Positions 16,235 to 36,129 of a stretch of 38,686 bases of DNA are shown here, one piece after another (position 1 is the first letter of the stretch; every line of letters starts with the position of its first letter). A model generated the notes under the pieces. That model had not been told where the DNA came from. It made no database searches and worked only from the letters and a program-made list of their open reading frames with translations. The position numbers were made by a program, and so were the translations under genes. The stretch is from Candidatus Microgenomates bacterium (GTDB lineage Bacteria; Patescibacteriota; Microgenomatia; UBA1406; GWC2-37-13): contig JBBILA010000001.1 of NCBI GenBank assembly GCA_037445105.1, forward strand, positions 1-38,686, given 5' to 3'.

Positions 16235-16241
16235 GAAAGTT

Positions 16242-16270
16242 ATTATAAAAATTAAAAATTAAAAAGTCAA
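16242..16270 (-). promoter_or_regulatory. sigma70 promoter TTGACT-17-TATAAT, 7 nt before the aminopeptidase ATG
   Basis: Near-consensus hexamers with 17-bp spacing. Confidence 0.7.
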
Positions 16271-16655
16271 AATTATATATCTTTTAAGCCACCAAAAGCT
16301 TTCGCATTATAATAGACAAGCCTGTTAAAAATAATAAATAACAAAAAAATTTTAATAACAAATAATAAATTTTTAATCAATTTTTAATAAATTAATAATA
16401 AATAATAAAAAAACTATAAAAATTTTAAATTGTAATTTTGAATTTTTAATTGAACTTTTGAATTTTGACTTTTGACTTTTGACTTTATTAAAGTATTTAT
16501 TATTGTTTAGAGTTTAGGATTTAGAATTTAGAGTTTAAATCAATTAGATCAATTAGGTTAATTAGGCTAATTAGAATAATTAGGTCAATTAGGTCAATTT
16601 TCTAAATATTTAATACTTTCTACTTACTTGTTAGACGTTATATGTTAGGTGTTAG
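16248..16655. repeat. Intergenic stack of short tandem repeat families
   Basis: TTTTGAC/TTTTGAA heptamers (~16421-16486, inverse at 16248-16274), TTTAGAG heptamers (16506-16533), AATTAGGTC 9-mers (16541-16599), TTAATAC-type and GTTAGA/CGTTATA-type heptamers (~16600-16655), AT-rich arm at 16367-16396. Confidence 0.88.
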
Positions 16656-17494
16656 TTGTTTAGAAGTAATATTAGTTGCTTCATCTTTTCTACTTCTTTT
16701 TTTGGCTCTTTGGCAAAAATAATTGACCGGGAAACATTGATGATTAATCCTTCTTTTTTTGAATTTAAACCAAATTTTAAAACCGACTTTAAATCACCTC
16801 CTTGAGCACCAACGCCGGGGACTAAAAACCAAAAATCATCCCCAACAATCTCTCGAATTTCTTTTAGCTCTTTTGGATAAGTGGCGCCAACAACCAATAA
16901 ACAGTTATTATTTTTATTCCATTTTTTAGCTACTTGATAAGCAACGTATTGATATAACTTAATTTTATTTTTAATACTTAATACTTTATACTTACTACTA
17001 TCTACTTGATACTTAATACTTAATTCTAAATCCTGAAACTCGCTACTTCCTGGATTTGAGGTTTTGCACAAAACAATAATCCCCTTATCTTTTCTTTTCA
17101 AAAAAGGCATCAACCCTTCTTCCCCGAGATAAGGATTAACGGTAACCGCATCGGCATTTAAATAGTCAAAAATAAAAGAGGCATAGGCTTCATTGGTATG
17201 ACCGATATCACCTCTTTTGGCATCAATAATGATTGGGATATAAGGATATGTGGCTTTAAGATAATCACAAGTCTCTTTCAGCCATTTGATTCCCTGATAT
17301 CCTATAGCTTCATAAAAAGCCGTGTTCAACTTGTATGAACAAACTGTCTGAAAAGTTTGCTCTATAATAAATTTATTAAACAAAAATTGACTGTTCCAAC
17401 CTAATGATTTTATTTTTTCCCACTCACTGTCCAAACCAACAGCTAAAAGAGTTTTATTCTTTCTAATGGCTTTTTTAAGTTTTTTAAGAAACAT
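16652..17494 (-). CDS. pyrF: Orotidine-5'-phosphate decarboxylase
   Basis: VGLD, YKLNTAFYE, IDAKRGDIGHT, TVNPYLG, KTSNPGS, VVGATYP, LVPGVGAQGG, INVSRSII. Confidence 0.95.
   Translation of the reverse strand: MFLKKLKKAIRKNKTLLAVGLDSEWEKIKSLGWNSQFLFNKFIIEQTFQTVCSYKLNTAFYEAIGYQGIKWLKETCDYLKATYPYIPIIIDAKRGDIGHTNEAYASFIFDYLNADAVTVNPYLGEEGLMPFLKRKDKGIIVLCKTSNPGSSEFQDLELSIKYQVDSSKYKVLSIKNKIKLYQYVAYQVAKKWNKNNNCLLVVGATYPKELKEIREIVGDDFWFLVPGVGAQGGDLKSVLKFGLNSKKEGLIINVSRSIIFAKEPKKEVEKMKQLILLLNN
16971..17026. repeat. Eight heptamer units (TTAATAC family) inside pyrF
   Basis: ttaatac ttaatac tttatac ttactac tatctac ttgatac ttaatac ttaattc. Confidence 0.88.
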
Positions 17495-17504
17495 AATTTA
17501 ATAA

Positions 17505-17628
17505 GAAATAATAAATAAATTAATAAATTAATTTTTAATCAATAACAAATATTTAAATTTTTAATATATTAAATTATTGATTTATTAAATATTGATTAAA
17601 AATTTATTATTGGTTATTTATTATTTTC
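17505..17628. repeat. AT-rich imperfect palindromic element (gene-less copy)
   Basis: ATTTTTAATCAATA (17531-17544) pairs with TATTGATTAAAAAT (17590-17603); outer AAATAATAAATAA/TTATTTATTATTT arms. Confidence 0.75.
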
Positions 17629-17665
17629 AACTGATTCCAACCGATTTTAACTGATTTTAACTGAT
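17626..17665. repeat. Four 10-mer units (TTTAACTGAT)
   Basis: ttcaactgat tccaaccgat tttaactgat tttaactgat next to the pyrE stop. Confidence 0.8.
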
Positions 17666-17667
17666 AT

Positions 17668-18264
17668 TTATTTTCTCCCCAAATAAATCATTAACTCCTG
17701 ATATTTATTCTCATCGATTTTTTTATTTTTCTTAAGAACATCTAGCCAATCAAAAATAGTAAAAGCCGAATGGAGTTGATATCCTTCTCTTTTTAATTCT
17801 TCTTCTCCTCCTTGCATTCGATCAAATAAAACAACAACATCTTTTACTTTTAATCCTAGACTTTCCAACAATCTAATGGTTTCCAATTTTGACCCACCAG
17901 TGGTAATCATATCATCAATCAAAACTACTGTCTCTCCACTTTGGTATTCACCTTCAACTGGCCTTTTAATCCCGTAACTTTTTACTTCTTTTCGTGAATA
18001 AATTAAGGGCTTTTTATTTAAAAGTGAAATTGCGGTAGCAATCGGAATGGCTGTGTAGGGAACAGCCATCATTCGGTCAAAACTTAATCGGTCAAGAATT
18101 TCCTTGTAAACAAAAGCTACGTCTTCAAGAACTTGCGGATAAGAAACAAGAATACGAAGATCAATATAAAAAGGCGATTTTAAACCTGATTTTAAGACAA
18201 AATGCCCAAACTTTAAAACTCCAATCTGAAAAAGATCAATCATCAATTTTTCTTTCTTGTTCAT
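17668..18264 (-). CDS. pyrE: Orotate phosphoribosyltransferase
   Basis: FGHFVLKSGLKSPFYIDLR, RKEVKSYG, PRPP motif VVLIDDMITTGGS. Confidence 0.95.
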   Translation of the reverse strand: MNKKEKLMIDLFQIGVLKFGHFVLKSGLKSPFYIDLRILVSYPQVLEDVAFVYKEILDRLSFDRMMAVPYTAIPIATAISLLNKKPLIYSRKEVKSYGIKRPVEGEYQSGETVVLIDDMITTGGSKLETIRLLESLGLKVKDVVVLFDRMQGGEEELKREGYQLHSAFTIFDWLDVLKKNKKIDENKYQELMIYLGRK

Positions 18265-18268
18265 ATAA

Positions 18269-19201
18269 TTAATCTAAAAATTTTAACTGGCCAATTTTTC
18301 TTGATAATTGACCAACTTTTTTTTCCTCTAAAATTTCGGTTAATTCTCTTTTTAATCGAGAAAAGATTTTTGGCCCCTCTTTCAAAAGACCAGTAGCCAC
18401 CCCAACCGCTTTAGCTCCGGCTAAAAGATATTCATAGATATCGCTCCCTTTCTCCACCCCACCAACGCCGATAATCGATAACCTGCCTTTTGAGAATTGA
18501 AAAAACAAAACTACTTGAGCCAAAGCAATTGGTTTTAAGACTTTTCCTCCCAAACCACCAATACCAAGATTTGGCTTAATCACCATCCTCTCTTTTTGAT
18601 AATCAACAATACATCCCAATGGATATGAGTTGATTAAAGTAACAAAATCGATCTTTAAGCGAACTAACTCTTGAGCAATCACCTTAATCTCTCCCCGATC
18701 AAAATAAGGGGGCAATTTTACTCCTAAAAGCTTTTTTGTTTTTTTCCTTAGATTTTTTAAAATTTTAAAGGCTTTTTTAAGATCATAAGCAAAAATCCCT
18801 TTTCCTTCGAGATTCGGACAGGAAAGATTGACTTCAATACCATCAAATGCTCCTTGATTCACTTTCTCCATTAAAAAATAAAACTCATCCTCTTTAAAAC
18901 CAGCAATACTGGCAATCAATGGTTTGTTAAATTTTTTTAAACTAAAAGAAATTTTTGTATAATAATCAACACCTAAATTTGGAAGACCCATACTGTTGAC
19001 TGAATACTCATCTTTGTAAAAAAGTCTTGGTTCTGGATTGCCGTCTCTTTTTTTAACTGTCATTGATTTAAAAACAATCGCTCCGGCTTCGCTTTTTCCT
19101 AACTCAACTAGTTCTTTCTTTTGAGTGCACCAAACCCCTGAGGCATTAAAAACAGGAAAAGCAAAAGAAAGACCATTAATTTTTGTCGCCAAATCAATCA
19201 T
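18269..19201 (-). CDS. pyrD: Dihydroorotate dehydrogenase, class 1A (fumarate-using type)
   Basis: NASG, GNPEPR, NSMGLPNLG, NLSCPN (catalytic Cys), GVKLPPYFD, GGLGG, IIGVGGV. Confidence 0.92.
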   Translation of the reverse strand: MIDLATKINGLSFAFPVFNASGVWCTQKKELVELGKSEAGAIVFKSMTVKKRDGNPEPRLFYKDEYSVNSMGLPNLGVDYYTKISFSLKKFNKPLIASIAGFKEDEFYFLMEKVNQGAFDGIEVNLSCPNLEGKGIFAYDLKKAFKILKNLRKKTKKLLGVKLPPYFDRGEIKVIAQELVRLKIDFVTLINSYPLGCIVDYQKERMVIKPNLGIGGLGGKVLKPIALAQVVLFFQFSKGRLSIIGVGGVEKGSDIYEYLLAGAKAVGVATGLLKEGPKIFSRLKRELTEILEEKKVGQLSRKIGQLKFLD

Positions 19202-20180
19202 TTTTTATCCCTAAAACTTTTAATCCATTTACAGTGGCGATTTTTACCAACTCTTTCAGATGGTAAAACCGATTGGCCTCAAGAAGAAGCCGCAATTCAT
19301 CCCACATCTCGCCATCGTTAAATGGTTTATAGATATCAACAATATTATCTGTCCCTAAAGCAACCAAAATTCCATTTTTAACCAGCTCATCAACCGGTGT
19401 AATTGAATTATGAGTAACTGACATTTCTTCACTTCTTTGACTGTCAATCCAAGCCCAAGGACAAGCAACAACCATTACTCCTGCTTTTTTCATTAAGCGA
19501 TAGACTTTTTCTCGATAGGCTTTTGGATGAGTGGCTAAAGAAATCGCATGAACGGCAACGACTTTTTTTTGATAACCAAACTCAATGGTTTTATTGGCTA
19601 AAAGTTCTGTCTCTTTTTCTTTTTGAGTATTAAGCTGATCAACATGAACATGGATCATTTTTTTTAATCTTTTTGCTTCGTTAAAAACAACCTCTAAATG
19701 CTTTTCCTCGAAAGGATGATCTTTTCCCGGAAGACTGCCGACAATATCGCAAAACTCCGCTCCAACCTTAAACCATTGATAAGCTTTTTTATCAATCACT
19801 CCTTTTAAAGTCTGATTGATAAATTTTATTTTTATTGTTTTTTGATAGCGATCTTTGATTCTAATTGCTGCTTTAATCGCTTTATCTCTTATTACCTCAT
19901 CAACATCAATAAAACTGCCAATCGCTTGAACATTTTGACTAAGCATCCTTTCAAGCGCATAAGCCATCCGATCATATATCTGAGAAACCGTTGATCTTTT
20001 TTTTAATTCATCAACCAACAACCATTTTTGATGAAGATGAACCTGTCCAAAAGAAAAACTTTTTTTTGTTAAAGTAAAGGCTCGGTCTAAATGAGCATGG
20101 GCATTAACAAAACCGCCATGTTTTTTTATTTTTTCCAAAAGGTAATCTTTTAAATCCAAATATTTAATTTTAGCGGCCAT
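19194..20180 (-). CDS. Metal-dependent amidohydrolase, cytosine deaminase-like fold, substrate unknown
   Basis: NAHAHLD, HVHVDQ, VHAISL, ALGTDNI metal-ligand pattern; lacks the N-terminal beta domain of CodA. Confidence 0.85.
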   Translation of the reverse strand: MAAKIKYLDLKDYLLEKIKKHGGFVNAHAHLDRAFTLTKKSFSFGQVHLHQKWLLVDELKKRSTVSQIYDRMAYALERMLSQNVQAIGSFIDVDEVIRDKAIKAAIRIKDRYQKTIKIKFINQTLKGVIDKKAYQWFKVGAEFCDIVGSLPGKDHPFEEKHLEVVFNEAKRLKKMIHVHVDQLNTQKEKETELLANKTIEFGYQKKVVAVHAISLATHPKAYREKVYRLMKKAGVMVVACPWAWIDSQRSEEMSVTHNSITPVDELVKNGILVALGTDNIVDIYKPFNDGEMWDELRLLLEANRFYHLKELVKIATVNGLKVLGIKND

Positions 20181-21792
20181 AACTTTCTGAAAGTCTTTGA
20201 ACTAATTTTTTAACCATCGATATTTCGGTAACAATTAAAGTTTTGTTTTTTATCGCATATTCGCGAATAATTTCACCATCGGTTTTTTCTTTTTCTTTTC
20301 GATGTCGGCCTGTTGGAATATTGATGATTAAATCGAAACGATTAGCCTGTAAAAGATCAAGCAAATTTGGCTTTTTGTGAGGTTCAGAAATTTTATGAAC
20401 TAAAATTGCCTCGATTCCTAATTTTTGTAAAAATTTAAAAGTTTTATAAGTGGCGTAGATTTTGAAACCAAGTTCTTTAAATTTGATAAATTCATCTTTT
20501 AGAAGCAGTTTATTTTTTCTCTTGCCAACAGTTAAAAGAACGGTTTTTTCTTTTTGTTGGGCCAGTCTCATCTGAAGAGTATAAAGCTCAATAAATCCAG
20601 CCGAAACATTTTGGTTAAAAGCAGTTGAGACATTAAAGGTGGCCAGTTTTTCTCTAAAAATCGTATTCGGCGTCTCAACTGCCATGATTGTCGCCTGACC
20701 TTTATAAAGTTTTATGGTAACTTTGCCGGTGACTTTTTGATTCACCTGATCGATATAGGCATTTAAATCATCCATCAAAGGTTCATACCACAAACCGCCA
20801 TAACAAAGATAAGCCCATTTAGTATCAACCAGTTCTTTAAATTCATTTTCCATTCTTGTTGAGACATATTTTTCTAAAACTTTATGAGCAGTAATGATAA
20901 TATGAGCCGCCGGGGCTTCATAAACACCTCTCACTTTCAAGCCAACTACCCTGTCTTCAAGATGAATGGTAACACCCACTCCATGACGGGCGCCGATTTT
21001 ATTTAATTTAATGATTAAGTCAGAAAGTTTCATCATCTTCCCATTTAAAGCCACCGGTAAACCTTTGACAAATTCCAGCTCAATCATCTCAGGTTTATCT
21101 GGCGCTTCCTCAGGAAGTGAACAAACTTGAAGGATTTTTTTCAGCGGCGGTACTAAGGCAGGATTTTCTATCTCTCCTCCCTCACCAGTTAATCCCCACA
21201 TATTATCATCCCACGAGTATGGAATATTAACTGTTTGTTTTATGGGGATACCATGTTTTTTGGCATATTCAATCTCCTCATCTCTTCCCATCGACCACTC
21301 ACGAACCGGAGCAATAATTTTGATATCGGGATTTAAAACTAAAGCTGTTCCTTCAATTCTCACCTGATCATTACCTTTTCCGGTACACCCATGAGCGATA
21401 CAGTCAGCGCCTTCAGAGGCGGCGATTTTTACGGCCCATTTGGCCAAAAGCGGCCGGCCAAGAGGAGTTGACAGATGATAATCCCCCTGATAAGAAGCAT
21501 TAGCTTTTATTCCTTTAGCGATATATTCATTGGCAAACTCATCTTTAGCATCAATAACATAGGCTTTGATTGCTCCTAATTTTAAAGCTTTTTGTCGAAT
21601 AGCTTCAAGATCATCAGCTTGCTGACCAATATCAATCGTTAAAGCAATTACTTGGGCTTTGTAAACATCCTGGATCCATTTTAAAATCACTGAGGTATCC
21701 AGTCCTCCAGAATACAAAAGAACGACTTTTTTAACCTCACCAATCCGACCCTCATAAGATGAGACTTTAAGATAATTAGTTTGTTTTTTCAT
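20170..21792 (-). CDS. argG: Argininosuccinate synthase fused to a C-terminal MGS-like domain
   Basis: YSGGLDTS, HGCTGKGNDQVR, EDRVVGLKVRGVYEAP; extra ~125 aa (GFKIYAT..V.KISE..P..LDLL..FDLIINIP..DG.IIREYA) match the CarB MGS pattern. Confidence 0.93.
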   Translation of the reverse strand: MKKQTNYLKVSSYEGRIGEVKKVVLLYSGGLDTSVILKWIQDVYKAQVIALTIDIGQQADDLEAIRQKALKLGAIKAYVIDAKDEFANEYIAKGIKANASYQGDYHLSTPLGRPLLAKWAVKIAASEGADCIAHGCTGKGNDQVRIEGTALVLNPDIKIIAPVREWSMGRDEEIEYAKKHGIPIKQTVNIPYSWDDNMWGLTGEGGEIENPALVPPLKKILQVCSLPEEAPDKPEMIELEFVKGLPVALNGKMMKLSDLIIKLNKIGARHGVGVTIHLEDRVVGLKVRGVYEAPAAHIIITAHKVLEKYVSTRMENEFKELVDTKWAYLCYGGLWYEPLMDDLNAYIDQVNQKVTGKVTIKLYKGQATIMAVETPNTIFREKLATFNVSTAFNQNVSAGFIELYTLQMRLAQQKEKTVLLTVGKRKNKLLLKDEFIKFKELGFKIYATYKTFKFLQKLGIEAILVHKISEPHKKPNLLDLLQANRFDLIINIPTGRHRKEKEKTDGEIIREYAIKNKTLIVTEISMVKKLVQRLSESYGR

Positions 21793-21827
21793 TTTTTATA
21801 AAAAATTAACTTTTAATAAAAAAATTT

Positions 21828-21859
21828 AAAAAAAAGAGGGGCAAAAGCCCCTCTTTTTT
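21828..21859. terminator. Intrinsic terminator hairpin GAGGGGC-AAAA-GCCCCTC with A/T tails on both sides
   Basis: 7-bp GC-rich stem at 21836-21853; on the minus strand followed by T8. Confidence 0.85.
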
Positions 21860-21893
21860 AAAAAAAATTCAAATTTTTAAGAAAAATTTTCAT
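21858..21893 (-). CDS. Candidate leader peptide MKIFLKNLNFF
   Basis: 11-codon ORF between a TTGACA-16-TATTCT promoter and the terminator; its stop abuts the hairpin. Confidence 0.45.
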   Translation of the reverse strand: MKIFLKNLNFF

Positions 21894-21904: not shown

Positions 21905-21932
21905 AGAATAGCAGATCAAAAATTTTTGTCAA
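21905..21932 (-). promoter_or_regulatory. sigma70 promoter for the argG-pyr operon
   Basis: TTGACA (21932-21927), 16 bp, TGn-TATTCT (21910-21905). Confidence 0.6.
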
Positions 21933-28595: not shown

Positions 28596-29165
28596 ATGAC
28601 AAATATTTTAAAAATTGATTTTTTTCTTACTTTTTTTTTAAGAGATATTTTTCCTCACAACCTTTTTTTTCAACAATTTTTTTCTTTTTTTTCTTTAATA
28701 GGTTATTCTTTTTTTATCTGGTTAATAATCCTCATTCTTGTCATTTTTCTTGAAGAAAAAAAACATCCAGGCATCAGCAAAAAAGATAAACAATTTATTT
28801 TTTCATTTATTCTTGGATTTTTTTTAACTATCTTAATTGTTGAGTTTCCATTAAAAAATTTTTTTCATCGTCTTCGACCTTATGTCTCTGATTTTAAACA
28901 ATTTAAGATGATTTTTAATGATTATACCTGTTCTGGTTTTTCTTTTCCTTCAGGTCATGCGGCAACGGCTTTTGCCTCAGCAACAATCTTGGCTTTTTTT
29001 GATAAGAAAAGAAAATGGTTTTATTATTTTGTAGCCACTCTTATTGCCTATTCACGAATCTTTCTTTTGTGTCATTATTTTTTTGATGTTCTTATTGGAG
29101 GAATATTAGGATATACTCTTGGAAAAACTATCTTAAAATTCACTTCTCCACCCCATAAAACTTAA
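28596..29165 (+). CDS. PAP2 family membrane phosphatase (undecaprenyl-diphosphatase-like)
   Basis: K..FHRLRP, FSFPSGHA, SRIFLLCHYFFDV. Confidence 0.92.
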   Translation: MTNILKIDFFLTFFLRDIFPHNLFFQQFFSFFSLIGYSFFIWLIILILVIFLEEKKHPGISKKDKQFIFSFILGFFLTILIVEFPLKNFFHRLRPYVSDFKQFKMIFNDYTCSGFSFPSGHAATAFASATILAFFDKKRKWFYYFVATLIAYSRIFLLCHYFFDVLIGGILGYTLGKTILKFTSPPHKT

Positions 29166-31764
29166 CTCTATCACCTCTAAACATCAAGTCAATCTCCCCT
29201 ACTGGTCCATTGCGGTGTTTGGCAATTGAAAGTTTTACCAATCTTTTATTTTGATCCAAAATATCCTCTGATTCCTCTTCCTGATACAAAAACATCACCA
29301 CATCCGCATCTTGTTCAATACTATTATGAACAATGATATCATTAGCGATAAAATTATGGGTTCCTTCAACTGTAGCATCAAAAACCTCCTCAACACCTAA
29401 AGGTTTTATCTCAACAACCCGATCCCAAAAAACCTCTGATTTTGCCAAAAGCTCCAATTCTTTATCCTTTAAAACTTTGGCAATTTTCTCCATTCTTTTT
29501 CTGCTAACTCCGTTTTTAAAAATATTGCTTCCCGAATAAGAGACTCCAAGACTTTTGGCAAAATCCCGCCATGACAAATTAAGACGATTTTTTGAGGCCT
29601 CAATAAAATCTCGCCAAACCTCTTTTGGTATAACATCATTATTTGGATTTTCTTTAATCTTTTCTAAAGCCTTGATAAACTGAGAAATTTTTTTACCTCT
29701 TTTTCCAAAACAACCAATTTTATTTAAAAAATTTAATAAATCTTGTTTTCCTTGAATATGAAGTTGCCAATTTGGTCGATAGCCTTTTTTAACAGTCTTT
29801 CTTATTGTTGATAAAATCCCAAGTCTTAATAATAAGTGCTGAATCTGAACAATTAAATTTTTACTAGTTGAAGAATAATAAACTGCAATTGAAGATTGAC
29901 GATTTTTCTTTTTCTTCCAAGAGATATTACCATCAGTCGCCCATAAATGTCTTAAGAATAAAACTAATTTTTCATTTGATGATTGAAAAACAGTTATTGG
30001 CAATTCTTTTTCATATGAGCGGACCGGTTTTATCCCTAATTCCTGATACCAATTAATTATCGGATGATGTTTTCCCCGAGTCAAACGATATGGTGATGGC
30101 AAATAAAGATGATACCAGTTTTTTTGTTTAATAATTTTTCCTTCGATATTAAAAAGTTCTTTGGCGGTTTTTTTTACAATCTTGATATTTTCTAAATCAG
30201 CACTTGTATAATGAATCGGTTGTTTTGGCAAAACACAACCATCACCAATTAAATGAGCTAAAAGAATCAATTCGTTATCAGAAAGTGAGTTTGGTCGATA
30301 ATAATGGTTATAAATTCGAGGAAGAGCTACTCGATCATCAATTTTTAACTGATCAAGTCTTACCCAGCCTTTAAGAGTCCTAAATTTATGATTGGCTGAA
30401 GCTTTAATTACTCGGCCGCTTTGAGTTTTTAATTGAAAGACTTGTTTTTTTCCGCTAGAAAAAGCTTTAATCATTTTTTTAATAACTAATTTCCAGTCTG
30501 AATCTAATGAATAAACAGGAATAGGTTGAAAATTTTCCATTTTTGCCAATTGGCCAATTTTTACTAACTCGCCTGTATCAGCTCTCATAATTAAAGAGTC
30601 ATAGGCTAAACATCCCGATTCACGAAGATCAGAAAGCTGAGGTTTTTTTGATCCTCGCTGTTCAACTGCTCTTGAAAGCTGAGATATCGCCAAAACCGGC
30701 ACTCTTAATTCCCTGGCTAAATTTTTCAATCCCTGAGAAACAGCAGAGACCTCATTAACTCTTGATTCAAAATATCTGCCGGCATTAGCAAGCTGCAAAT
30801 AATCAACAATTATTAATCTAATATTTTTTTCCAGTTTTAATTTTCTTGCTTTTGTTCTCATCTCAAGAATTGATGCTCCCGGAGTATCATCGATAAATAT
30901 TGGGGCTTCAGAAAGCTCTCCCATCGCTTCAGTTAATCTTTTATAATCATCATCAGAAAGTCTTCCTGTTTTAAGTCGCCAAGCATCAATATCTGCCTGA
31001 CCAACCAAAAGCCTATCAACAAGCTCTTCTTTACTCATCTCCAAAGAAAAAAACCCCACCGGCATTTTTTCTTTTATTGCTACGTTTAAAGCGATATTTA
31101 AAGCAAAAGTGGTTTTACCAATCCCTGGTCTGGCTGCCAAAATCAGAAGATTTGACTCTTGCATACCGGCTAATTTATTATCTAAATCAGCAAATCCTGT
31201 TGGCACGCCTCGAAGATGAGATCCTTTTTTCATAAATTCCTCCAATCGTTCAAAACTTTCCGCTAAAATATCTTTTAGTTCAATAAAATCTCGATGAAGA
31301 TGCTGTTGGGATAAAGAAAAAATCTCTACTTCAGCCTCATCTAAAAGTTTTTTGACATCAGCTTTTTCATCAAAAGACTTTTCCACCAACCTTGATGACA
31401 GATCAATCAGTTTTCTCTTAACAAAATGGTTTTTGACAATTAAAGCATAAGTTTCAACATAAGCTGAAGTAGGTACAGAATTTATCAAATCAGCAAGATA
31501 TGATTTTCCACCAATTTTTTTTAAAGAATCAGTTTTTTTAAGTTCGTCTTGAATGGTGATAATATCAATCGGCTGTTGTTTTTCAAAAAGAGAAACCATC
31601 GCTTCATAAATAAGCTGGTGTTCTCTTTTGTAAAAATGCTCTGGTTTTAAAAACTCAATAACAAGATTGATCGCTTCCGAATCAATAAGCAATCCGCCTA
31701 AAACTGATTTTTCTGCATCCAGATCATGAGGAGGGATTTTAAGGGCATCTGAAGTTATTGCCAT
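29140..31764 (-). CDS. dnaB: Replicative DNA helicase DnaB with intein
   Basis: PPHDLDAEKSVLG, Walker A AARPGIGKT, FSLEMS, IVDYLQL, SQLSR, SDLRESG|intein|SIEQDAD. Confidence 0.97.
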   Translation of the reverse strand: MAITSDALKIPPHDLDAEKSVLGGLLIDSEAINLVIEFLKPEHFYKREHQLIYEAMVSLFEKQQPIDIITIQDELKKTDSLKKIGGKSYLADLINSVPTSAYVETYALIVKNHFVKRKLIDLSSRLVEKSFDEKADVKKLLDEAEVEIFSLSQQHLHRDFIELKDILAESFERLEEFMKKGSHLRGVPTGFADLDNKLAGMQESNLLILAARPGIGKTTFALNIALNVAIKEKMPVGFFSLEMSKEELVDRLLVGQADIDAWRLKTGRLSDDDYKRLTEAMGELSEAPIFIDDTPGASILEMRTKARKLKLEKNIRLIIVDYLQLANAGRYFESRVNEVSAVSQGLKNLARELRVPVLAISQLSRAVEQRGSKKPQLSDLRESGCLAYDSLIMRADTGELVKIGQLAKMENFQPIPVYSLDSDWKLVIKKMIKAFSSGKKQVFQLKTQSGRVIKASANHKFRTLKGWVRLDQLKIDDRVALPRIYNHYYRPNSLSDNELILLAHLIGDGCVLPKQPIHYTSADLENIKIVKKTAKELFNIEGKIIKQKNWYHLYLPSPYRLTRGKHHPIINWYQELGIKPVRSYEKELPITVFQSSNEKLVLFLRHLWATDGNISWKKKKNRQSSIAVYYSSTSKNLIVQIQHLLLRLGILSTIRKTVKKGYRPNWQLHIQGKQDLLNFLNKIGCFGKRGKKISQFIKALEKIKENPNNDVIPKEVWRDFIEASKNRLNLSWRDFAKSLGVSYSGSNIFKNGVSRKRMEKIAKVLKDKELELLAKSEVFWDRVVEIKPLGVEEVFDATVEGTHNFIANDIIVHNSIEQDADVVMFLYQEEESEDILDQNKRLVKLSIAKHRNGPVGEIDLMFRGDRVKFYGVEK
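29323..30612 (-). mobile_element. 430-aa intein with LAGLIDADG homing endonuclease
   Basis: Starts CLAYDS after RESG, block B ASANHKF, LAHLIGDG and LRHLWATDG motifs, ends IIVHN followed by Ser. Confidence 0.95.
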
Positions 31765-33511: not shown

Positions 33512-34300
33512 ATGATAAAACCAATTATTTTTATCAAATATGGTGGTTCAGTAATCACCAACAAAGAAAAAGAAGAAGAGGTTATTGAAAAAAATATTGA
33601 TTTTATCTCCTCTCAAATCAAAGAAGTTTATAATCTTAAAAAATACTCTTTTATTATTGGCAATGGTGCCGGAAGTTTTGGCCATATTCAGGTTAAAAAA
33701 TATCATTTAAAAGATGATATCACAAGCGATTTTCAAAAACTTGGCTTTTCAAAAGTCTCTTTTCTTGTCTCAAAACTTAACTTTAAAGTTGTTTCATCTT
33801 TAATAAACTATAATCTCCCAGCAATATCAATAAAGCCATCATCAATCTATCTAAGTAAAAACAATAAAAAAAACAAATTCTTTATTGACTCAATTTTAGA
33901 ATTTCTAAACTCGGATTATCTTCCGGTTTTATACGGCGATATGGTTTTGGATAAAGAAAAAGGCGGTGTTGTTTTATCAACAGATAAAATATTTTTTGAA
34001 TTAGTAAAAATTTTTTATAAAAAAAATCTTAAAATTGAGAAAATAATATTTTGTGGAAAAACTTTAGGAGTCATTGATAAAAAAGGAAAAACAATTCCTT
34101 TAATAACTAAAAAAAATTACCCAAAAATAAAGTCAGTTTTTTTTGAAAACAGTTATGTTGATGTCACCGGTGGAATGAAAACCAAAGTTGAAACAGCTTT
34201 AAAAATCGCTAAATTTGGTATATCAAGCTATATTTTGGACAAAAACAATCTCAAAAACTGTCTGGTAAATAAAAATTTTCTGGGAACAAAAATCTTATGA
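33512..34300 (+). CDS. Isopentenyl phosphate kinase (amino-acid kinase family)
   Basis: IKYGGSVITNK, GAGSFGH (IPK His), PVLYGD, LSTD, DVTGGMKTK; overlaps uppS. Confidence 0.85.
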   Translation: MIKPIIFIKYGGSVITNKEKEEEVIEKNIDFISSQIKEVYNLKKYSFIIGNGAGSFGHIQVKKYHLKDDITSDFQKLGFSKVSFLVSKLNFKVVSSLINYNLPAISIKPSSIYLSKNNKKNKFFIDSILEFLNSDYLPVLYGDMVLDKEKGGVVLSTDKIFFELVKIFYKKNLKIEKIIFCGKTLGVIDKKGKTIPLITKKNYPKIKSVFFENSYVDVTGGMKTKVETALKIAKFGISSYILDKNNLKNCLVNKNFLGTKIL

Positions 34301-35448: not shown

Positions 35449-36129
35449 ATGCCATATAGAAAAGAAAAATTTGTTAATGGATACTATTATCATATTTTTA
35501 ATAAAACTATAGACAGGCTTCCGGCATTTATCAATAGTTCTTTTTATAAATTATTTCTTAATCTTATAAAATACTATCGTTCTGAAAATGCTAAAATTCG
35601 TTATTCTTTCTTTATTAATTTAGAAAAAGAAGAAAAAAAACAAATAGAAGAAAAAATAAATGATAAAAAATCATTTTTAGTCGAGATCGTTTGTTTTTGT
35701 CTTTTAGAAAATCATTATCATTTTTTATTAAAACAAAAGAAAGATAATGGAATTGTAAAATTTATTAGTAATTTAACTAATGCTTTTACAAAAAGTTATA
35801 ATATTATCAATAAAAGAATAGGACCTCTTTTTTTGCCGAGATTTCATTCTGTCTTAATAAAAAACAGAGAGCAATTTATTCATCTTTCAAGATATATCCA
35901 TCTTAATCCTTACTCTCATGGCTTTATAAAAAATATTAATCAGTTAAAATATTATCCCTATTCTTCTTTTGGGCTCTTTTTTAAGAAAGATTTTAATTCT
36001 TTAATTAACAAAAAAATAATTCTTAGTGAATTTAATAATAGTCAAAAAAGATATCAAGAGTTTGTTTTAAATCATGCTGAATATCAAAAAGATCTTCAAA
36101 AAATCAAAAAGTTAATCTTAGAAAAGTAG
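35449..36129 (+). mobile_element. REP-associated tyrosine transposase (RAYT / Y1 HUH family)
   Basis: YYHIFNK, FCLLENHYHFLL (HUH), GPLF..RF, SRYIHLNP (catalytic Tyr), YPYSS; flanked by inverted REP-like copies. Confidence 0.9.

Follow-up and report, generated by a model that had tools for sequence, protein, structure and literature searches.

A pyrimidine operon headed by an ArgG-MGS fusion in a Microgenomates genome, and a proposed entry to pyrimidines by way of argininosuccinate

Genes at the locus

The subject of this report is a pyrimidine (pyr) operon in a stretch of 38,686 nucleotides (the window), contig JBBILA010000001.1 of assembly GCA_037445105.1, from a Candidatus Microgenomates bacterium. 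The window is contig C1 of a genome of 804 kb (76 contigs, 97% complete), whose nearest relatives carry the label Candidatus Roizmanbacteria. Five co-oriented genes, argG, an amidohydrolase gene, pyrD, pyrE and pyrF, lie on its minus strand (Table 1), and we propose that the products of the first two may supply the pyrimidine ring to those of the last three. An earlier note on this DNA, made from the sequence alone, had described the same five genes, and hidden Markov model (HMM) libraries return the same open reading frames (ORFs) under the same names. On recount, argG overlaps the amidohydrolase gene by 11 bp, the latter overlaps pyrD by 8 bp and a gap of 4 bp separates pyrD from pyrE, as had been stated; the spacing between pyrE and pyrF is 173 bp. 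The absence of carAB, pyrB, pyrC and argH from the window was likewise borne out, as none is found among its 34 proteins scanned with the HMM libraries.

The ArgG-MGS fusion and its leader

The first enzyme matches argininosuccinate synthase ArgG of Thermus (1J1Z, E 3e-111), with the same residues in the ATP loop and at the citrulline and aspartate sites. In human ASS1 the citrulline residues are Y87, N123, R127, S189, E191, E270 and Y282, and the aspartate residues T119, N123 and D124 (PMC13289927). All nine of these residues are conserved in ArgG-MGS: when numbers are mapped by motif and through the 1J1Z alignment, Y105, N141, R145, E204, E279, T137 and D142 are present in 45/45 fusion sequences, as is T or S at position 202, and Y291 in 43/45. 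In a quick tree ArgG-MGS groups as sister with plain ArgGs from arg operons of the Candidate Phyla Radiation (CPR), with which it has motifs in common. An altered substrate pocket, considered on account of Pro110, was dropped because plain CPR ArgGs also have Pro110. Judged from these residues, ArgG-MGS would form argininosuccinate.

Unlike the usual ArgG, it carries an MGS domain, opens a pyr operon and stands in a genome without ArgH or ArgF. Its length of 540 residues is explained by this C-terminal domain, which is related to the allosteric domain of CarB: residues 437-519 form an MGS domain (PF02142), a point absent from the earlier note, and the C-terminus matches CarB of CPR at E 2e-14. 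In CarB of Escherichia coli we take K954, T974, N1015 and D1025 to be further residues of the nucleotide site; their counterparts, together with those of S948, T977 and K993, are conserved in ArgG-MGS, and those of K954, T974, K993 and D1025 occur in 48/48 fusions. S948, T977 and K993 belong to the UMP/IMP site of CarB (PMC6245113), and T421, T451 and K467 of ArgG-MGS stand at their positions. Nucleotide regulation of ArgG through the MGS domain is predicted from this correspondence.

A second layer of control may lie in the argG leader, whose promoter, short ORF and terminator the earlier note had not mentioned either. An attenuator of the pyrBI type, which senses UTP, consists of a promoter, a leader ORF, a U-rich tract and a terminator before the first gene. 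All four elements are predicted here and are conserved, and the leader resembles such an attenuator; the hairpin could also end the upstream HD gene. The TTGACA box is invariant in 6/6 aligned leaders, of which three differ in their upstream genes, and a start codon follows it by 39-41 nt in five of the six by script, the sixth being visible by eye. A terminator hairpin within 160 nt of the start was found at 24/49 argG-MGS loci, redundant loci included, against 13/171 control genes. It is present at 21/26 loci where argG heads pyr genes against 3/23 others, as judged by eye on gene maps, and is retained even where the upstream gene diverges. An Rfam scan of the window returned nothing but one tRNA.

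Table 1. Positions of the operon genes, their domains, the leader elements and other features of the window
Feature	Position	Strand	Basis or remark
argG	20170-21792	minus	540 aa; TIGR00032 470 bits, cut-off 268
argininosuccinate synthase domain of ArgG-MGS	20548..21792	minus	HMM libraries and 1J1Z alignment
C-terminal MGS domain, predicted nucleotide feedback site	20170..20547	minus	PF02142, E 7e-13
amidohydrolase	19194-20180	minus	328 aa; NF005365/PRK06886 441 bits, cut-off 340
pyrD, class 1A dihydroorotate dehydrogenase	18269-19201	minus	NF002702 333 bits, cut-off 301
pyrE, orotate phosphoribosyltransferase	17668-18264	minus	TIGR00336 139 bits, cut-off 107
pyrF, orotidine monophosphate decarboxylase	16652-17494	minus	TIGR02127 231 bits, cut-off 111
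sigma-70-like promoter, predicted	21905..21932	minus	TTGACA, 16 nt, extended -10; 10/12 matches
11-codon T-rich leader ORF, predicted attenuator part	21858..21893	minus	ends at hairpin
intrinsic-terminator hairpin, candidate pyrimidine-sensing attenuator	21815..21862	minus	z = -4.1
AT-rich low-complexity short repeats, intergenic	16235-16651 and 17495-17667
AT-rich repeat inside pyrF	near 16960-17030		gives a ~20-residue insert in PyrF
DnaB helicase	29140-31764		carries an intein with LAGLIDADG endonuclease
tRNA	33368-33439
amino-acid-kinase-fold protein	33512-34300		likely UMP kinase
IS200-like transposase	35449-36129

The PRK06886 hydrolase

The amidohydrolase is a member of NCBIfam NF005365/PRK06886, a hypothetical family without assigned function, and the PRK06886-type family comprises more than 1,600 sequence clusters that are at present mislabelled cytosine deaminase. 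On the cytosine deaminase models it scores only 80-91 bits against cut-offs of 403-483, its NCBIfam matches include no PyrC model, and its own genome holds no TIGR00857 match. The best structural matches of its model (pLDDT, the predicted local distance difference score, 92.9) are CodA and AtzC, with template modelling scores of 0.80-0.85 over the query and a structural identity of 20-24%. It has the TIM barrel and the mononuclear site of HxH, His, His and Asp that define amidohydrolase subtype III (the CodA cluster), and H28, H30, H179, H211 and D278 are invariant in 149 members.

Fold, metal ligands (three His and one Asp) and catalytic His are thus those of AtzC (2QT3, 4CQB) and CodA (1K6W). 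The likeness to AtzC goes further, as R33, D92 and N279 match or resemble its K65, D127 and N304, which bind malonate and substrate (PMC4577212). AtzC is an N-isopropylammelide isopropylaminohydrolase, which frees an alkylamine from a cyclic amidine (PMC4577212). The catalytic Glu217 and Asp314 of CodA, in contrast, are not conserved: across the 149 members E217 aligns with Q182, D314 with N279 and T66 with R33, in a mapping by sequence alignment that admits shifts of one residue, D181 being adjacent to Q182. Besides the Gln at the CodA E217 position, the hydrolase differs from AtzC and CodA in length (328 against 400-430 residues) and in an invariant set of its own, K52, W53, D154, H177, D181, N184 and H257.

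The active-site signature is identical in CPR, Melainabacteria-like, argH-linked and viral members, and the family therefore looks isofunctional. Its tree has weak deep support, from which no direction of transfer can be read. Collections of plasmids and cultured phages gave only distant AtzC/CodA-like matches, and PHROGs holds no matching family. Cultured carriers do exist, namely Saprospira grandis and Empedobacter.

Genes missing from the genome and co-occurrence in relatives

How can a cell reach dihydroorotate with such a set of genes? The whole genome, and not just the window, has no match for PF00185 (PyrB/ArgF), PF02786 (CarB) or PF00988 (CarA), nor for PF00206 (ArgH and other lyases) or PF02274 (arginine deiminase), these profiles being positive in 14/14 control genomes except PF02274 (3/14). 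Its sole PF01979 protein is the hydrolase. When references from CPR and E. coli were used in tblastn, PyrG, GlyA, Prs and Tmk were present, and no PyrB, PyrC, CarAB, ArgH, Udk, Upp or DDAH-like gene was found; a phosphoribosyltransferase of 180 residues on contig C21 reaches 29 bits on PF14681 (uracil phosphoribosyltransferase, cut-off 27). Arginine biosynthesis through ArgF-ArgG-ArgH is incomplete in the same way, ArgF and ArgH being absent. The genome-wide search that the earlier note had proposed for carA, carB, pyrB, pyrC, argH and argF thus came out empty for all six. In an assembly of 76 contigs a single missing gene could be a gap, and it is the comparison across many genomes that carries the argument.

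The family sample comprises 121 genomes, of which 29, spread over 13 genera, carry the hydrolase. Aspartate transcarbamoylase (ATCase) is above cut-off in 0/29 carriers against 52/92 non-carriers, and PyrC-like proteins in 1/29 against 50/92; ArgF-like matches occur in two carriers, G306 and G346. ArgG is present in all 29 carriers and PyrF in 27. ArgH is present in nine and absent in 20. Among the genomes with ArgG, the 20 that lack ArgH all have the hydrolase and the 25 that lack the hydrolase all have ArgH. If the 86 pyrF-positive genomes are considered (89 minus three weak matches), the hydrolase alone is present in 27, ATCase alone in 51 (including two truncated matches), both in none and neither in eight. 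Both the hydrolase state and the ATCase state are found inside the genus of this bacterium.

In the class sample of 201 genomes 11 carry the hydrolase (one of them split), all 11 with a PF01180 match, and in ten of them ArgG adjoins it. More remote are five Melainabacteria-like carriers of unknown completeness, which have plain ArgG (5/5) and pyrK-pyrD-pyrE (4/5). Their sole carbamoyltransferase is ArgF-like in 4/5 (two classified by NCBIfam, four by BLAST), and no PyrC is above cut-off; their PyrC-like matches were discarded, being dihydropyrimidinases in the 2/4 that were classified. In the Melainabacteria class sample ATCase is present in 71/101 genomes and the hydrolase in one alone (G204).

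Gene neighbourhoods and fusions

The order argG-MGS, hydrolase, pyrD recurs at 8/16 GTDB loci, with at least three types of PyrD behind the cassette, and for this reason the grouping is not due to chance; the linkage that the earlier note had proposed to test in other genomes is conserved. Loci without argG near the hydrolase are L015, six Melainabacteria-like loci and the remainder. Relatives without the cassette hold pyrB-carA-carB-pyrC at the same position, in three genomes (G009, G068, G331) as pyrB-carA-carB-pyrC-pyrD-pyrE-pyrF. Among metagenome loci, counted on the best 80 of 554 confirmed ones, many short and some redundant, neighbours are MGS (34), ArgG (33), PyrD (23), PyrE (18), PyrF (15), ArgH (12), Udk (9), DDAH-like (8) and PyrB (2), and ArgG, ArgH or a DDAH-like gene is found in 40 of the 56 that reach 5 kb. 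Taken together, the module that replaces carAB-pyrB-pyrC is real and conserved, and is probably regulated.

Fusions point to the same partners. Of seven longer homologues, six join the hydrolase, its active-site motifs intact, to PyrD, and one of these continues into PyrE. MGS is fused to the hydrolase in five of the seven long 50%-representatives examined (P0322, P0326, P0330, P0342 and P0357; 473-487 aa); in these, position 33 is K and the 244-265 loop is somewhat unlike that of other members. Since MGS is found on CarB, on ArgG and on the hydrolase, it fits a mobile feedback module placed on whichever step commits flux to PyrD. Two further proteins are probably frameshifted or misassembled: P0127, a hydrolase fragment behind a tape-measure-like region, and P0374, in which PyrD is fused to a hydrolase half that has degenerated.

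The hydrolase, signature complete, also occurs on about 40 contigs of large aquatic viruses (L202-L242; L195), where genes for thymidylate synthase, GMP reductase and DNA polymerase are often close by, and one Atlas cluster of the hydrolase is 87% viral, with Nucleocytoviricota the commonest. These copies fit a role in nucleotide supply, and equally a deaminase.

Several other arrangements were seen. An AsnRS/AsnA-like catalytic domain fused to MGS adjoins pyrD at L087:5016-6527 (G163), L079:9180-10598 (G057), L147, L163, L179 and L262 (G308). In G057 it lies between the split hydrolase and pyrD, and in G308, a genome without ATCase or hydrolase, it heads pyrD-pyrE; it may be a third entry to pyrimidines, for example by ATP-dependent ring closure. 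In Bacteroidota-like loci (L156, L157, L143, L149, L152, L154, L158, L169) the hydrolase stands before ADI-like and CtlX genes or is co-oriented with argH, and once it lies directly behind a pur operon. Six loci (L004, L007, L011, L014, L012, L016) are titled Gammaproteobacteria and have Microgenomates- or Melainabacteria-like gene content, so that their titles look unreliable.

A possible route from argininosuccinate to dihydroorotate

In the proposed pathway ArgG-MGS would join citrulline, taken up from a host, with aspartate to give argininosuccinate, and the PRK06886 hydrolase would split this into dihydroorotate and ornithine, feeding PyrD, PyrE and PyrF. This reaction balances by mass (C10H18N4O6 = C5H6N2O4 + C5H12N2O2). 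Presumably the aspartyl beta-carboxyl first closes onto a guanidino nitrogen, giving a six-membered cyclic amidine, after which ornithine is displaced from C2 by a metal-bound hydroxide, just as isopropylamine leaves N-isopropylammelide in the AtzC reaction; ring closure with amine expulsion of this type would explain why neither PyrB nor PyrC is needed. Cyclic anhydrides belong to the chemistry of argininosuccinate, and no paper on them was found in the literature searched. CodA-cluster enzymes are reported to be active on conjugated rings (PMC12828455), a preference that favours a cyclic intermediate. The MGS domain and the leader hairpin would exert nucleotide feedback at the first committed step.

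Three ways of feeding the hydrolase can be imagined. Citrulline may enter via ArgG, with a DDAH-like gene lying between in G130, L159, L174 and L184; ornithine may be recycled through ArgF-ArgG, as in G346 and the Melainabacteria-like genomes; or ArgH may run in reverse, as in G036, which has argH beside the hydrolase and no ArgG match. The earlier note had suggested that ArgG and the amidohydrolase make the ring precursor from citrulline. Canonical genes and argH are indeed absent and the linkage is conserved, which supports the idea in general; of its two suggested products, N-carbamoyl-aspartate is less likely than dihydroorotate because 28/29 carriers lack PyrC. Its phrase "without carbamoyl phosphate" is not general, since G346 and the Melainabacteria-like carriers keep CarAB and/or ArgF.

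The canonical pathway (CarAB-PyrB-PyrC-PyrD-PyrE-PyrF) shares with this one its last three enzymes, the operon position in relatives, the bond between ureido carbon and aspartate nitrogen, and the MGS regulatory domain. The operon here differs in having no CarA, CarB, PyrB or PyrC, and the carbon would come from ATP-activated citrulline with ornithine as leaving group. In the arginine synthetase pathway of Thermococcus kodakarensis, too, arginine or citrulline feeds pyrimidines without carbamoyl-phosphate synthetase, but that route still forms carbamoyl phosphate with ArcB (PMC13260591), whereas no carbamoyltransferase is found here. Carbamoyl phosphate is described as the pyrimidine precursor in all domains of life (PMC13260591), and the available part of PMC6022934 describes carbamoyl-phosphate routes alone. 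No paper with the term PRK06886 and no description of an argininosuccinate-to-pyrimidine route were found in a literature search that covered subscription journals thinly.

That some argininosuccinate-based entry to pyrimidines operates here we regard as likely, and that the hydrolase itself converts argininosuccinate directly to dihydroorotate and ornithine as reasonably probable. The reading in its full breadth, to which we give a probability of about 0.55, is that PRK06886 is a widespread, unrecognised enzyme with this activity and a second de novo entry without ATCase or dihydroorotase, fed by ArgG, by an ArgF-ArgG cycle or by reverse ArgH, and used by Patescibacteria, some Melainabacteria and Bacteroidota, while large aquatic viruses would carry it to get round the pyrimidine control of their hosts with a single gene.

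Other explanations

A number of observations weigh against this reading. No citrulline source (PF02274, DDAH-like, ArgF, ADI-like and CtlX searched) and no importer (APC permease PF13520 and CodB searched) were found in this genome. CodA-cluster activity is tied to conjugated rings, and enzymatic ring closure of argininosuccinate is assumed. One carrier, G306, retains PyrC; two genomes of the class sample, G036 and G083, retain a full pyrB-pyrC-pyrD operon beside the hydrolase; and G345 and G351 have ArgG frames of 541-550 codons with no hydrolase or PyrF. Neither front half is present in 8/86 pyrF-positive genomes of the family, nor either route in 37 of the 83 class genomes with a PF01180 match, some of which are probably not PyrD (one unpublished genome, G067, is included in these two class tallies and in no other claim); pyrDEF can thus persist on scavenged precursors. 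Kin genomes are not independent, and p-values overstate the exclusion, though both states still occur within one genus. Of the 44 viral loci mapped, about 40 lack ArgG, ArgH and PyrD in their vicinity (40 copies with neither ArgG nor PyrD inside 5 kb), and udk is among the metagenome neighbours. In G015 (L084:8223-9647) ArgG-MGS is followed by an 8-oxoguanine-deaminase-like amidohydrolase, an unknown ORF of 404 residues, upp and pyrG, with no PyrD; here the front enzyme may be put to another use.

Which other explanations could account for the module? The route might be the same and the cut another: the hydrolase would give only N-carbamoyl-aspartate, with an unrecognised enzyme closing the ring, or PyrD would first oxidise cyclic argininosuccinate and the hydrolase then free orotate. 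Hydrolase-PyrD fusions are compatible with either order, an aromatic 2-amino-pyrimidinone would suit CodA-cluster chemistry (PMC12828455), and the AsnRS-like-MGS protein, in principle able to activate the beta-carboxyl, adjoins pyrD in some carriers. That protein, however, has no match in this genome, the operon has no additional conserved gene, and the variety of PyrD types behind the cassette makes PyrD look unspecialised, which leaves this variant unlikely. Somewhat less likely still is a salvage deaminase of nucleobases, nucleosides or nucleotides, with pyrDEF running on scavenged dihydroorotate or orotate and the link to ArgG incidental. CodA as top fold match, udk beside the hydrolase in 9/80 loci and guaB or GMP reductase in others, the viral copies near thymidylate synthase and DNA polymerase, and invariant basic residues that could bind phosphate all suit it, but nearly all members have Gln for CodA E217 and Asn for D314, Udk and Upp have no tblastn match in this genome, where one phosphoribosyltransferase is marginal on PF14681, and the PyrD and MGS fusions, the 0/29 overlap with PyrB and the 20/20 genomes with ArgG and no ArgH would stay unexplained. 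The earlier note had itself set its proposal against an enzyme acting only as a nucleobase deaminase; the lack of the CodA catalytic Glu and of a clear uracil-salvage partner in this genome argues against such an enzyme.

Might ArgG-MGS activate another ureido or carbamoyl donor, either urea (giving guanidinosuccinate) or carbamate, whose product the hydrolase deiminates or cyclises? The missing citrulline source would then be no difficulty, and CodA-type enzymes usually release ammonia; yet the residues for the amino-acid end of citrulline are conserved, the plain arg-operon ArgGs of CPR are the sister group with common motifs, and genes for DDAH-like, ADI-like and ArgH proteins nearby speak for arginine and citrulline, and we consider this improbable. 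It is a little more improbable that the hydrolase takes no part in ring formation and instead provides ArgG with citrulline, derived from arginine or one of its derivatives. Such a role agrees with the argH, ADI-like and CtlX neighbours in Bacteroidota and would supply the missing citrulline, but the 20 carriers that lack ArgH would have no further use for argininosuccinate, the PyrD fusion and the exclusion of PyrB and PyrC would have no explanation, and several loci already have a DDAH-like gene placed between those for ArgG and the hydrolase. The earlier note's alternative, in which ArgG with an ArgH elsewhere supplies fumarate to PyrD, has hardly any chance left: the PyrD of the operon is of class 1A and 9/29 carriers have ArgH, yet 20/29 do not, many carriers use other PyrD types, and this genome has no PF00206 lyase unless argH fell into an assembly gap, for which reason the idea was rejected.

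Implications

Should direct conversion of argininosuccinate to dihydroorotate hold, it may also explain a trait of Haemophilus influenzae, for which citrulline is said to replace uracil. HI0842 of this species is annotated as AtzC-like (PMC3877243) and uracil has been modelled as essential for it (PMC9040583); a search of the supplement of the latter gave nothing on a link to citrulline, the papers on H. influenzae that were searched make no mention of citrulline, and term searches of PMC3941224, PMC8794153 and PMC7673413 contributed nothing further. If true, pyrimidine synthesis would have a second de novo entry in the two-enzyme route from citrulline and aspartate, with a new enzyme activity at its base, and more than 1,600 sequence clusters of one family that now passes for cytosine deaminase would gain a function. 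Calls of pyrimidine auxotrophy in Patescibacteria and others would then have to be revised, as 27/86 pyrF-positive genomes of the family would use the route.

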